From an uncultured Defluviitaleaceae bacterium (lineage in GTDB: Bacteria; Bacillota; Clostridia; Lachnospirales; CAYYRV01): DNA of 35,491 nt. The notes beneath the pieces are model-generated. The model saw only the letters and a list, made by a program, of their open reading frames with translations, searched no databases and had not been told where the DNA came from. Positions 25,328 through 28,949 of the stretch are shown here, in pieces. Every line of letters starts with the position of its first letter. Position 1 is the stretch's first letter. A program made the translations under genes and the position numbers. The DNA lies in NCBI GenBank assembly GCA_964474135.1, contig CAYYRV010000025.1:1-35491 (forward strand), in the 5' to 3' direction.

Positions 25328-26305
25328 TTATTCAATCCTATTATTAAGCTCGAATTGTTTATATATTCTTTCTTTTATTTGCTCTAAAAAACTTTTAGGT
25401 TCGATAACACGTATAACAGGTCCAAAGCTTAAAATTCTTATTAATAATTCAGTTTCTTCTTGTTTGTCATAATAAAGTTTACAAATATAACAATCTTTTT
25501 CATTATCATATTCAGTTTGTTTTTCCCATGATGCAAATTGCAACATACATCGCTCTAATGCATTACGTTCCTTGGAAACCTCAAATAAAATAAAACTATT
25601 ATTAGCTGTACATTTATAAAATTTTTCTATATTGAAATTAGGCTCAATAAAAACATTTGATTCTTCAACAGAAATAATGCGAGCAAAGTTAAGAATGGTT
25701 TTAATTTTTTTATTATTTTCTATTAAAACACCATAAAGACGGAATTTATCATCACGCATAGAGTAGTTAATTTTATAAGGTATTATATGTATATTTAATC
25801 TTTCTTTTTTTCTATTTTCATAGTCTATTATTATAGGTTGCATAGTATTACAAGCATTCAGTATTTTATTAAAATTTTTTTTATATTCTACGTTACTATA
25901 AGGGTCTCCATCATTTGCATTATCAAAAATATGAAAATCATTTTGATTAAATAGAGGAGAAATATGTTCAAATTCTTTTTCCAAAACATTAAGCTCACCT
26001 TGAGAAATAAATAATTTAATTCGCTCATCTGAAATAAGAGATTTCAACCATGATTTTTCTAAAGTAGTAAGAGGTCTTTTTATTGTAGTAGATTTAATCT
26101 TTGAGTAAAACATACCTTGCTTATTTTCTAGCAGGTTCCATTCTCCCGAAAATAATTTAGGCAACATATGAAAAGCACTATCATAAAAAGCGTTATCACT
26201 AACAAATTTTTCAATTTCACCTCTTGTCATACCTTTCTGTGCCTGTTCTAATACTCTAGCTATTACTGTATAATAACAGCCATATACTTCCGAAAATAAG
26301 TCCAT
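25328..26305 (-). CDS. WYL-domain transcriptional regulator (second of a tandem pair).
   Basis: The N-terminal MDLFSEVYGCYYTVIARVLEQA-type wHTH start is typical of HTH-WYL proteins, with a central WYL-like beta region. AGGAGAG RBS. It lies 9 nt downstream of the first WYL gene. Confidence 0.65.
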   Translation of the reverse strand: MDLFSEVYGCYYTVIARVLEQAQKGMTRGEIEKFVSDNAFYDSAFHMLPKLFSGEWNLLENKQGMFYSKIKSTTIKRPLTTLEKSWLKSLISDERIKLFISQGELNVLEKEFEHISPLFNQNDFHIFDNANDGDPYSNVEYKKNFNKILNACNTMQPIIIDYENRKKERLNIHIIPYKINYSMRDDKFRLYGVLIENNKKIKTILNFARIISVEESNVFIEPNFNIEKFYKCTANNSFILFEVSKERNALERCMLQFASWEKQTEYDNEKDCYICKLYYDKQEETELLIRILSFGPVIRVIEPKSFLEQIKERIYKQFELNNRIE

Positions 26306-26314
26306 ACTGCTCTC

Positions 26315-27571
26315 CTAATTATTACATAGTGTTTCGTTTCCGATAATATCATATATTTCTTTCATTCTCTTTACATCATTATAAAAACGGTTAATTACTC
26401 CCTGATTAGTTCCCTCCAGTTGGAGTATCCTTCCCATAAACGTTTTAATCCATGGTGATATATCATTTGAATCAAACATTTCTTTTGTATACAAGAATGT
26501 ATTTTTCTTTAAGCGTAAAACCTCACCTTCGTGTCCTTCTCTAAAAATACGCTCCAAAATATAGCCTTCTTTTTCTTCGTCAATATATAGCTTCATACAT
26601 ACTATCTCCGAGCGGCTATGTCCTCCAAAACTTACTCCCCATACTTTATTAATATTTTTTTCAAGTAATTTGCGGTATTCTGTAGCCTCTTCACAAACAC
26701 CAACGTGCTTAACAGATTTAATATGGTCTAAGCGATAATTAAAAAACCGCCTTGAATGTGTCTTATAAACACATAAATAACGTCTTCCTGTTGCAGAACT
26801 AACAAAAATTTTAAGAGGAATACCATCAAAATTTGAAACCCAATTACTGTTTTCATTATAGTTTAAAAACTCAATTTTTTCATTTTTTCTAATTGCCGAG
26901 AGTAAGTCCATTAATATACCATCTTCTAATGTATGTGCTACATAATTATGTTTATATGTAAATATATTATTTTTTTCATTTTCATTGTCTAAAATAAAAC
27001 TTCCTATTTCTCCAAAAGGAGCACAGCCCTGAAAGAATTTTACAGCATCTAAAAGTGTTGGAGAAAGCAGTAATAAATTATCAAAGCTTTTATCCGAAAG
27101 AGTGTAAAATAAAGCCTTTCCTATCTTTTCAGATACAATCAATCCATTTTTTACATATTCTTTACACTTTATTCTAACTGTTTGAATATCGAATGTTACG
27201 CCACTTTGCTCACAAATTTTATCAGTTATTTGTTCTATTGATAATTCAGAATTGTTTTTTAATATATCAATTATGTAAAAGTGAAGCATTATATCATTTG
27301 AAGTAAATGCCTTCGACTTCCATGCGGCATACAAAGGATTTACAGGTATTTTGGCACAGTCTATAGAAATGAAAGCAGTCTTTCCGTTTTTGTTATACAC
27401 CCATTTCATATATTCTCCCATATAACTTTCTATTCTTCTTTTTTCATTATCATATGTTCTGGGAGACTTATTTTTAAAATCGTTGCGTGACTTAAAGCCA
27501 TATATATAAAAATCACGAATATAATCTCTTATTTTATCAAAATTGCGAATTAACTCGTTAAACTCTGCCAT
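26315..27571 (-). CDS. WYL-domain transcriptional regulator (first of the pair, 418 aa), divergent from rtcB.
   Basis: The N-terminus MAEFNELIRNFDKIRDYIRDFYIYGFKSRNDF resembles the HTH of WYL/PafBC-type regulators. AAGAGGTG RBS. Confidence 0.65.
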   Translation of the reverse strand: MAEFNELIRNFDKIRDYIRDFYIYGFKSRNDFKNKSPRTYDNEKRRIESYMGEYMKWVYNKNGKTAFISIDCAKIPVNPLYAAWKSKAFTSNDIMLHFYIIDILKNNSELSIEQITDKICEQSGVTFDIQTVRIKCKEYVKNGLIVSEKIGKALFYTLSDKSFDNLLLLSPTLLDAVKFFQGCAPFGEIGSFILDNENEKNNIFTYKHNYVAHTLEDGILMDLLSAIRKNEKIEFLNYNENSNWVSNFDGIPLKIFVSSATGRRYLCVYKTHSRRFFNYRLDHIKSVKHVGVCEEATEYRKLLEKNINKVWGVSFGGHSRSEIVCMKLYIDEEKEGYILERIFREGHEGEVLRLKKNTFLYTKEMFDSNDISPWIKTFMGRILQLEGTNQGVINRFYNDVKRMKEIYDIIGNETLCNN

Positions 27572-27716
27572 AACAAAACACCTCTTAATTATATTTTGTA
27601 ATAGAATACTTTCGCATACTTTTTTAAATGATAATTATGGAATTTTATATTACTATAATATCATACAAAACAAACATTAATAAAGATTAATTTTTAAAAA
27701 AGAAGGAAGTGATTTT

Positions 27717-28949
27717 ATGTTTGTCATAGCAAATGAAAATACTAAAGTTCCCATAAAGGTCTGGCTAGAAGATGAAAAAAGTATAGAGGAAAGTTGCCTT
27801 GAACAAGCATACAATCTTTCCAACTTACCATTTTTACACCAATGGGTAAACTTAATGCCTGACACACATACAGGAATGGGTATGCCTATAGGAGGAGTAA
27901 TTGCTACTAAAGATGTTATTATTCCAAACGCTGTAGGAGTAGATATAGGTTGCGGAATGGCATTTTGTGAAACAAATATACCTGTCTCAGAAATAAAAGA
28001 TATACAGACAGCAAACGGAACAATAATTCAAGGTATTGTAGGAGACATTCTAAGAAATATTCCTGTTGGCTTTAGGCATCATAAACATGAGCAGCCATGT
28101 AATACATTAGATTTTGCATTTGAAGAATTGGATAAATATGATTCAAACCCAGAACTTTTAGGGCAGCTTGAAGCAGGCTTTTTCCAAGTAGGAACATTAG
28201 GTGGAGGAAATCATTTTATTGAACTACAAGAAGACTGTAATGGTTTTTTAGGGATTATGATTCACTCCGGAAGCCGCAACTTTGGTAAACAGGTTTGCGA
28301 TGCTTTTCATAGAATTGCAAGAGAACTTAATCAGAAATGGCATTCCTCAGTTCCAGACTATTATCGTTTAGCTTTTTTGCCTATCGATACAAAAGAAGGT
28401 ACTCAATACATAAATTGGATGAATCTTGCACTTAATTTTGCAGAAGAAAACAGATTGCGTATGATGCTTGCAGTTAAAGCAATATTAGAAAAATGGATTG
28501 GAAAGCATACACAATTGAATTTAGAATATGGTATGGAAATAAATTGTCATCATAACTATGCCGCAATTGAGAATCACTATGGTAAAAAAGTATGGGTGCA
28601 TAGAAAAGGAGCAACAAGAGCAAGAAAAGGCGAGTTAGCCGTAATACCTGGTGCAATGGGCTCGTATAGTTATGTAGTAGAAGGGTTAGGCAATGATATG
28701 AGTTTTCATTCTTCATCTCATGGGGCAGGGCGTAAATTTTCAAGGAAAGGTGCTATGACAAATTTCTCTGCTGAAGAAGTTATACTAGACCTTTATAAAA
28801 GTGGCATTGTTTTGGGAAAGAAAAACAAAAATGATGTCGCAGAAGAAAGTCGTTTTGCTTATAAAGATATTGATGAGGTTATGGAAAACCAAAAAGATTT
28901 AGTTAAACCTATTAAAAGACTGAAAACAATCGGTGTAGTTAAAGGCTAA
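27717..28949 (+). CDS. rtcB: RNA-splicing ligase RtcB (3'-phosphate/5'-OH RNA ligase).
   Basis: Metal/GMP-site motifs MPDTHTGMGMPIGGV, GVDIGCGM, HSGSRNFG, NCHHNYA and HGAGR. 410 aa. Confidence 0.9.
   Translation: MFVIANENTKVPIKVWLEDEKSIEESCLEQAYNLSNLPFLHQWVNLMPDTHTGMGMPIGGVIATKDVIIPNAVGVDIGCGMAFCETNIPVSEIKDIQTANGTIIQGIVGDILRNIPVGFRHHKHEQPCNTLDFAFEELDKYDSNPELLGQLEAGFFQVGTLGGGNHFIELQEDCNGFLGIMIHSGSRNFGKQVCDAFHRIARELNQKWHSSVPDYYRLAFLPIDTKEGTQYINWMNLALNFAEENRLRMMLAVKAILEKWIGKHTQLNLEYGMEINCHHNYAAIENHYGKKVWVHRKGATRARKGELAVIPGAMGSYSYVVEGLGNDMSFHSSSHGAGRKFSRKGAMTNFSAEEVILDLYKSGIVLGKKNKNDVAEESRFAYKDIDEVMENQKDLVKPIKRLKTIGVVKG

Follow-up and report, generated by a model that had tools for sequence, protein, structure and literature searches.

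The 35,491-nucleotide (nt) contig CAYYRV010000025.1 of an uncultured Defluviitaleaceae bacterium (assembly GCA_964474135.1), analysed here at its full length and referred to as the window, carries two adjacent regulator genes, wylA and wylB, that are transcribed divergently from the RNA ligase gene rtcB. WylA and WylB are two diverged regulators of the HTH-WYL-WCX type (HTH: helix-turn-helix) and are proposed to act together as one heterodimeric transcription factor, WylAB. In our assessment, WylAB is probably a PafBC-like heterodimeric regulator of an RNA-repair module composed of RtcB, a tRNA-like RNA and an SPFH/Band-7 protein, and works through an asymmetric, conserved 22-bp sequence, the 'WylAB box' (TTCGCATACTTTTTTAAATGAT, 27611-27632 on the forward strand (+)). 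This box is the predicted site of the regulator and, in the rtcB promoter, spans positions from about -52 to about -31.

The open reading frame (ORF) coordinates confirm the gene layout given in a preliminary description of this sequence. The WYL regulator gene wylA (26315-27571, reverse strand (-)) is an ORF of 418 aa, wylB (25328-26305 (-), 325 aa) starts 9 nt past the wylA stop, and the pair stands head-to-head with rtcB (27717-28949 (+), 410 aa) across an AT-rich spacer of 145 bp (27572-27716). The product of rtcB, the first gene of the predicted regulated operon, is a 3'-phosphate/5'-OH RNA ligase that matches the Pfam RtcB model (PF01139) over its full length (E=2.8e-111), and the SSHGAGR motif with the nucleotidyl-histidine was seen in its translation. 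After a non-coding gap of 623 nt, the module ends with the SPFH/Band-7 gene (band7, 29573-30664 (+), 363 aa, Pfam Band_7 E=1.9e-30).

For comparison, 80 genome loci from Lachnospiraceae, Oscillospiraceae and other Clostridia were collected with a WylA profile, and the genes around wylA were counted in the 71 loci that had at least 1.5 kb of upstream flank. RtcB, Band-7 or DUF2828 was present in 64 of these: RtcB with Band-7 (32 loci), RtcB alone (14), DUF2828 (9), DUF2828 with RtcB (6) or Band-7 alone (3). This linkage, and the box that ties the regulators to the module, bear out the suggestion of the preliminary description that an RNA-repair ligase is the likely target of the pair. The DUF2828 protein of these loci has about 500 aa with a C-terminal DUF7788 domain, and it is presumably what Burroughs & Aravind called the 'Rot' scaffold, a Ro/TROVE-like protein. 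Nine loci without an adjacent rtcB (L031, L033, L036, L064, L066, L072, L074, L075 and L037) have the order box, tRNA-like RNA, DUF2828 + DUF7788 gene. Their tRNA-like RNA lies directly 3' of the box, is 112-118 nt long, scores at or above the Rfam tRNA gathering threshold and differs from the RNA associated with Band-7. The DUF2828 gene is sometimes followed by a second type of RtcB and the nucleotidyltransferase RlaP (RNA-ligase-associated), the latter added in one locus.

The consensus of the box, TTCGCA-N3-TTTTT(T)-AAATGAT, is non-palindromic, with near-invariant columns (61 unique sequences aligned). As a regular expression it was matched 58 times in 1.12 Mb, at most once per locus and always pointing away from wylA; the window contains one match at up to 3 mismatches (0.16 expected). 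The spacing to the predicted promoter is fixed: a TAnnnT hexamer stands exactly 19 nt past AAATGA in 127 of 146 unique promoters, and is represented in the window by the predicted -10 element TACTAT (27651-27656 (+)), which is overlapped by TATAAT (27654-27659). The hexamer at -35 is ATGATn across promoters, a poor match to TTGACA; in the window it is ATGATA, with which the box ends. The rtcB ATG follows at a distance of 72-191 nt from the box (median 93), and the minimum of 72 is compatible with a box at about -52 to -31; the predicted rtcB transcription start is near 27663. On the opposite side, the wylA start is 13-100 nt away in most loci (median 57 nt), and no consistent -35/-10 pair for a wylA promoter could be placed between the box and this start.

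It is the repair genes that the box tracks, and not wylA. Where 2-5 kb separate rtcB from wylA, the box stays before rtcB and wylA has no second copy of it, so that autoregulation does not seem to be conserved; when rtcB is missing, the box precedes DUF2828 or Band-7, with a non-coding leader of 320-650 nt. As an independent test, a metagenome collection was scanned with the DNA pattern of the box alone. A repair gene was found within 1.3 kb downstream in 80 of the 96 matches with at least 900 nt of downstream sequence (RtcB 57, Band-7 12, DUF2828 11). A further count covered the 68 matches that had both a repair gene and at least 1.5 kb of upstream sequence: the neighbouring divergent gene was WylA in 53, and WylA stood at another place of the locus in 7. 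WylA was the only gene besides the repair genes found travelling with the box. Box matches without repair genes look like chance matches. A phage origin was also considered and rejected: the seven box matches in viral contigs were accompanied by no Wyl, RtcB, Band-7 or DUF2828 genes and were attributed to chance.

The preliminary description had pointed to a direct repeat in the spacer, ATACTTT-CGC-ATACTTT, as a possible operator. The repeat is present, at 27606-27622 (+), which is 8 nt to the left of the position originally assigned (27614-27630), and the proposed place of the operator was approximately right; the repeat itself did not hold up, because a 7-mer repeat within 10 nt arises in 742 of 5000 (15%) dinucleotide shuffles of the spacer and it is the box that is conserved. 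The upstream copy is not conserved in relatives, and the CGC and the second copy overlap the box: the direct repeat is the window's version of the left part of the box and is not the conserved feature. Seemingly covarying inverted repeats on either side of the -10 element in several loci were likewise dropped (mean best stem 3.20, against 3.07 +/- 0.075 in a flank-swapping control).

That both ORFs encode WYL-domain proteins, as first described, was upheld by profile searches. The PADLOC WYL profile matches WylA (E=7.7e-8) and WylB (E=7.4e-12) of the window; the Pfam WYL model scores 21.6 bits on WylA residues 219-288, borderline against its cut-off of 21.8, and WylB of the window has no Pfam match. 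In orthologues, Pfam WYL was found in 35 of 36 WylA and 22 of 37 WylB sequences. The expected WCX domain was detected in 18 of 37 WylB orthologues (Pfam PF25583), and for WylA it was identified at the level of fold comparison only. More than 1000 homologues were obtained for each protein, several of them labelled 'WYL domain-containing' by NCBI (Anaerocolumna and other Lachnospiraceae). Anaerocolumna cellulosilytica is one example of a complete genome with wylAB.

Domain boundaries were as follows: in WylA, the N-terminal region takes up residues 1 to ~90, the winged HTH ~91-158, the WYL domain ~219-292 and the WCX-like domain ~296-406, with a helical linker between HTH and WYL; in WylB, the winged HTH (~9-68) is joined by a helical linker to the WYL domain (~141-215), after which comes the WCX domain (~237-323). 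The HTH domains were assigned from structure models and not from profile matches: helix-helix-helix-beta-hairpin units are present at WylB 9-68 and WylA 91-158 in the AlphaFold2 (AF2) models, which have a predicted local distance difference test score (pLDDT) of 83.5 for WylB and 70.2 for WylA. Similarity between the two proteins is confined to the WYL region (hhalign E=0.005, and reciprocal cross-matches of hidden Markov models). An invariant basic cluster was found in the WYL domain of WylA (G262, R263, R264, R280, D282), and K187, F188 and R189 are conserved in WylB; by analogy with PafB/PafC, one subunit of WylAB may dominate ligand binding.

When the models were compared with the PDB using Foldseek, PafBC was the best match of both: 9fnd_Y for WylA (2.3e-10), and 9fnd_X (1.2e-10), as well as 9fnd_Y, for WylB, which was aligned over its whole chain. 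Entry 9fnd is PafB/PafC in a complex with RNA polymerase. Both models subsequently matched DriD, CapW, the fused Arthrobacter PafBC (6sj9) and BrxR (E 1e-10 to 1e-5), and the alignments to PafBC and DriD span ~340-360 columns, that is, all of WylB and most of WylA. Searches of the PDB sequences with phmmer and hmmsearch returned nothing meaningful for WylA or WylB and did not retrieve PafBC. WylA and WylB thus have the architecture of PafBC without being its orthologues. The PafBC-like architecture named in the preliminary description is retained (best fold matches, tandem pair, fusions) and orthology with PafBC is not (no sequence match, another locus, another motif).

The N-terminal extension of WylA (residues 1-95, encoded at 27287-27571 (-)) is among the most conserved parts of the protein and holds many of its invariant residues, including the motifs FYIYGFKSR, RTYDNEKRRIESY and NPLYAAWKSK.FT. 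In the 150 best of 632 cluster representatives it was confined to the N-terminal end of WylA-type proteins, and it had no Pfam match; a second contact with DNA, RNA or RNA polymerase is a possible role.

Repeated gene fusion is a classic sign that two proteins act as one unit. In nearly all of the 80 genome loci wylB is directly 3' of wylA, with short or overlapping junctions, and full-length single-chain WylA-WylB fusions of 728-898 aa, with differing linkers, have arisen in at least 7 lineages. They were found among the 50%-identity cluster representatives (P0092, P0252, P0253, P0290, P0314, P0333 and P0367) and in two genome loci (L041, 4316-6811; L046, 579-3275). Because the pair is conserved and repeatedly fused, we infer that WylA and WylB form a physical heterodimer, and the asymmetric, non-palindromic box fits a heterodimer with two unlike DNA-binding heads. 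PafBC offers a precedent here also: it occurs as a natural single chain in Arthrobacter, the form of its first crystal structure (PDB 6sj9).

The 623-nt gap between rtcB and band7 contains a structured non-coding RNA (29040-29405 (+), ends approximate), delimited by a partial Rfam match, alignment and covariation. No tRNA was found in the window with ARAGORN, and nothing in the window reached an Rfam gathering threshold. At E-value thresholds, positions 29117-29175 gave a partial match to YrlA (RF02553; 34.8 bits, E=1e-5, model positions 23-85; gathering threshold 69 bits) and positions 29149-29235 a match to tRNA (27.1 bits; cut-off 29). With these sub-threshold matches and the covariation below, the downstream tRNA-like elements that had been noticed at the outset are substantiated. 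The structure was derived from a 31-sequence alignment with RNAalifold and explicit pair counting, which support a T-arm, a mini-hairpin, a D-arm and a long-range helix: 97.9% of the cells were paired, compared with 80.9% in shuffles and 36-51% with partners slid, and 102 compensatory cells were counted (30.7 expected).

From its 5' end, the RNA comprises a hairpin (29050-29065 (+)), the left strand of a long-range helix (29068-29074 with 29377-29384 (+)) and a YrlA-like core of T-arm (29125-29141 (+)), mini-hairpin directly after it (29142-29154 (+)) and D-arm (29157-29171 (+)). This order of T-arm, hairpin and D-arm is that of the YrlA tRNA-like domain, which explains the partial Rfam match. 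In the long-range helix, CGGTGCC pairs with GGATACCG; it is invariant, shows no compensatory changes and is therefore proposed from conservation and complementarity only. The window also has extra modules (29211-29330) that are absent in most relatives, consisting of a second T-arm (29211-29227 (+)), a second D-arm-like stretch (from near 29247 (+), GCCAAGTGGTTAAAGGC) and an anticodon-like hairpin (CAGAG-CTTAACA-CTCTG). T-loop modules number from 1 to 4 per locus (four in L003).

In 29 genome loci, rtcB and band7 are separated by 207-875 nt, nearly always with 1-4 T-loop motifs in between, and in the 45 loci with matched RNA elements the Band-7 gene comes after the RNA. In Band-7-only loci the same ordered RNA elements stand directly after the box, indicating that the RNA goes with Band-7 and is under the same promoter. 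A terminator-like hairpin with a T-run (29372-29398 (+), AAAGCGGATACCGTTTT ATTATTTTTT) overlaps the 3' strand of the long-range helix in the window; the T-run is not conserved in relatives, and co-transcription of band7 in this organism is uncertain. A second, unrelated SPFH/Band-7 gene (1876-2868 (+)) adjoins a gene for a small RelA/SpoT-type alarmone synthetase (3406-4203 (+)), and neither a box nor a tRNA-like RNA was noticed beside it.

In the mechanism that we propose, WylAB would bind the asymmetric 22-bp box, which abuts and replaces a proper -35 element, and would thereby control the operon of rtcB, the YrlA-like tRNA-mimic RNA and the SPFH/Band-7 gene; in other Clostridia, the same pair and box would control modules of DUF2828 with a tRNA-like RNA, or of Band-7 with its RNA. 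A nucleic-acid ligand made by damage would enter the WYL/WCX groove, and liganded WylAB would recruit or adapt sigma-A RNA polymerase at a promoter without a good -35, inducing the repair module. Candidate ligands are RNA fragments or ends, for example tRNA halves with 2',3'-cyclic-phosphate and 5'-OH termini, or alternatively single-stranded DNA (ssDNA); damaged RNA is suggested by the regulon and ssDNA by family precedent. WylAB as the factor that binds the box, activation as the sign of its effect and the nature of its ligand are what we infer from these patterns.

Provided that WylAB binds the box, ligand-dependent activation by the heterodimer is reasonably likely on the analogy of known WYL activators, which are matched by the fixed box-to-(-10) distance, the lack of a usable -35 and the asymmetric site. 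In DriD-regulated promoters the spacing between site and -10 is identical throughout, and good -35 elements are missing (PMC13004042). Binding to the box may also affect wylAB transcription, given its median distance of 57 nt from the wylA start. A bolder version, in which broken RNA is bound in the WYL/WCX tunnel and switches on a sigma-A promoter without a -35, making WylAB the first RNA-damage-sensing WYL transcription factor and a second, independently evolved heterodimeric WYL regulator, is put forward tentatively, as a conceivable but not the expected outcome. It might even be that the ligand consists of fragments of the operon's own tRNA-mimic RNA, serving as a decoy or sentinel for anticodon nucleases.

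Several observations weigh against the control of the repair module by WylAB in this manner. Repair genes are absent near 7 of the 71 WylA loci (L024, L026, L047, L052, L055, L069 and L079), where the box is also absent upstream; the targets of these seven wylAB loci, if any, must be elsewhere in their genomes. Neither protein matched the HTH models of Pfam and NCBIfam, also when N-terminal fragments were used, except for a weak PaaX-like winged HTH at WylA 124-161, and the ~90 N-terminal residues of WylA were modelled with very low AF2 confidence. In defence systems, the WYL regulators BrxR and CapW act as repressors, so the sign of regulation could be opposite, and the well-characterised ligands of WYL transcription factors in the matched structures are all ssDNA and not RNA. 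Finally, 8 of the 68 loci with a box and a repair gene have no WylA in the available flank, and another factor, one that simply co-occurs, might in principle be what reads the box.

Such a factor, for example an alternative sigma whose promoter element is the box, would leave the WYL pair to regulate something else. We give this explanation very little credence: the eight loci just mentioned are matched against WylA adjacent in 53 and nearby in 7 of the 68, no other non-repair gene travels with the box, the -10 is a sigma-A-like TAnnnT, and no likeness to sigma-54 or common Firmicute alternative-sigma consensus sequences was apparent by eye. It is highly unlikely, too, that WylA and WylB are separate homodimers with their own sites or ligands and are just co-transcribed. 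All reported WYL transcription factors except PafBC are homodimeric (PMC11804915), and the two proteins are very diverged, being alignable in the WYL region only; yet each locus has a single conserved box, which is asymmetric, adjacency is near-obligatory with short or overlapping junctions, and full-length fusions occur in at least 7 protein clusters.

Repression would be the alternative sign of control. WylAB on the box would block RNA polymerase at rtcB until released by a ligand, in the manner of BrxR and CapW, possibly with autorepression of wylAB. Both of these repressors turned up as structural matches of WylA and of WylB, the -35 position is overlapped by the box, and with a median of 57 nt to the wylA ATG occupancy of the box would probably interfere with the divergent promoter. 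PafBC and DriD, however, rank above BrxR and CapW in both fold searches, the conserved poor -35 (ATGATn) with a rigid box-to-(-10) spacing is the activator signature of DriD and PafBC, and the box is asymmetric, unlike the palindromes expected for homodimeric repressors; the loci with a distant rtcB, which have no second box at wylA, speak against autoregulation as a conserved trait. We therefore consider a repressor unlikely.

An ssDNA ligand, as for PafBC, DriD and CapW, would instead make WylAB a DNA-damage sensor and place the RNA-repair module in a DNA-damage or prophage-induction response. In favour of this stand the presence of ssDNA in every liganded WYL transcription-factor structure matched, the activation of PafBC by ssDNA (PMC11804915) and the expression of Salmonella rtcBA in the SOS response, dependent on Gifsy-1 prophage genes (PMC9879122, in the excerpt used here). 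The regulon observed, by contrast, is made up of RNA-repair components and tRNA-like RNAs only, with no DNA-repair gene beside a box; RNA, too, is bound by the WYL fold, which is Sm-like (PMC11804915); and the analogous RtcR is described as regulated by damaged tRNAs in an excerpt of PMC7790460. On balance, DNA-damage sensing is a somewhat doubtful account of WylAB, if one to be taken seriously.

Regulation of the repair module by WylAB can be compared with several known systems. PafBC, the heterodimeric DNA-damage activator of Mycobacterium and Arthrobacter, likewise has tandem paralogous HTH-WYL-WCX subunits, is the best structural match of both Wyl models and acts through an asymmetric motif that takes the place of the -35 and keeps a fixed spacing to a downstream TAnnnT -10. 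It differs in having no detectable sequence relationship to WylA/WylB, in its occurrence in Actinobacteria at a Pup-proteasome locus, whereas WylAB is found in Clostridia without a Pup-proteasome context, and in its DNA-repair regulon, the genes linked to WylAB being those of RNA repair. PafBC acts at a -26 motif, which is read by the PafB HTH while the PafC HTH binds sigma region 4 (PMC11804915); the WylAB box is another sequence, at ~-52 to -31, and WylA has its extra conserved 90-aa N-terminal region. DriD of Caulobacter, also a top structural match, shares the order of winged HTH, three-helix linker, WYL and WCX and is a ligand-driven activator with sites at a fixed distance from the -10 and a poor -35, but is a homodimer with an ssDNA ligand and a DNA-damage regulon. 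BrxR and CapW, of BREX and CBASS islands, have the same three-domain fold and are encoded beside the operon that they control, but are homodimeric repressors of phage-defence genes and not of RNA repair.

The RtcR-rtcBA system of E. coli and Salmonella has a divergent ligand-sensing regulator dedicated to the rtcB operon, as is proposed for the window, and the Salmonella operon also encodes Ro and the YrlA/YrlB RNAs. RtcR is a sigma-54 enhancer-binding protein with a CARF domain; at the WylAB locus the promoter is of the sigma-A type, and no RtcR (sigma-54 activator with CARF) and no RtcA were found among the ORFs of the window, in agreement with the initial proposal that the WYL pair stands in the place of RtcR. 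The window RNA shares with YrlA its core, with T-arm, hairpin and D-arm in the same, covariation-supported order; it is far larger (~320-360 nt) and closed by a long-range helix, and no TROVE/Ro protein gene is present among the window ORFs.

The repair module itself (RtcB, Band-7 and b7a-tRNA; Ro/YrlA) was already described computationally in 2016 by Burroughs & Aravind, according to an excerpt of bioRxiv 10.1101/312249. The window shows the same gene-RNA-gene order and falls within the RtcB / Band-7 / tRNA-like RNA system as that excerpt summarises it; the excerpt also states that b7a-tRNA is not experimentally validated. In a literature search, which did not include Burroughs & Aravind 2016, no link between a WYL regulator and RtcB was found beyond citations of the 2014 CARF/WYL review. 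The 2016 paper may already mention WYL regulators beside such systems, because PMC7824862, a later publication of that group, refers to it on the subject of WYL domains and 2',3'-cyclic RNA ends. As far as can be told, the apparently new elements are the obligate and recurrently fused regulator pair, which would be a second heterodimeric WYL factor and is unrelated to PafBC, the activator-type geometry of the 22-bp box and the box itself, and the extent of the Band-7-associated RNA.

The remainder of the window is ordinary housekeeping DNA from the chromosome of a Clostridium-type Firmicute, with ~30% GC and ORFs for YchF, FeoB, a MiaB-like enzyme, rplM-rpsI, a Clp ATPase, DeoD and MltG. Between deoD and a radical-SAM gene lie genes for a 253-aa protein with a FliG C-terminal domain alone (22605-23366 (+)) and for a DUF4364 protein (23589-24176 (-)), in a region otherwise without flagellar genes. 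Three ORFs had no Pfam match at E<=1e-5: 16745-18388 (-) (547 aa), 33064-34245 (+) (393 aa) and 14418-15113 (+) (231 aa).

To our knowledge, the only characterised regulator of an RtcB system is the proteobacterial sigma-54/CARF protein RtcR, and little is settled about the signals and substrates of such systems in bacteria. The locus described here probably represents a second, unrelated regulatory solution for RtcB, in gut and rumen Clostridia, and supplies a defined 22-bp predicted operator, a promoter geometry and a three-part regulon (RtcB, SPFH/Band-7 or DUF2828, and tRNA-like RNAs). The large YrlA-like RNA associated with Band-7 is a non-coding RNA class in its own right, known here from sequence alone. 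As of 2025, no heterodimeric WYL proteins other than PafBC and its orthologues had been reported (PMC11804915); a second heterodimeric WYL family with another regulon would test the generality of 'sigma adaptation', or WYL-driven activation, as well as the ability of transcription-factor WYL domains to read RNA in place of ssDNA, and the natural single-chain WylA-WylB fusions would make the biochemistry easier. If the bolder version above is true, Clostridia own a self-contained sense-and-repair circuit, analogous to RtcR-RtcBA and built from different parts.

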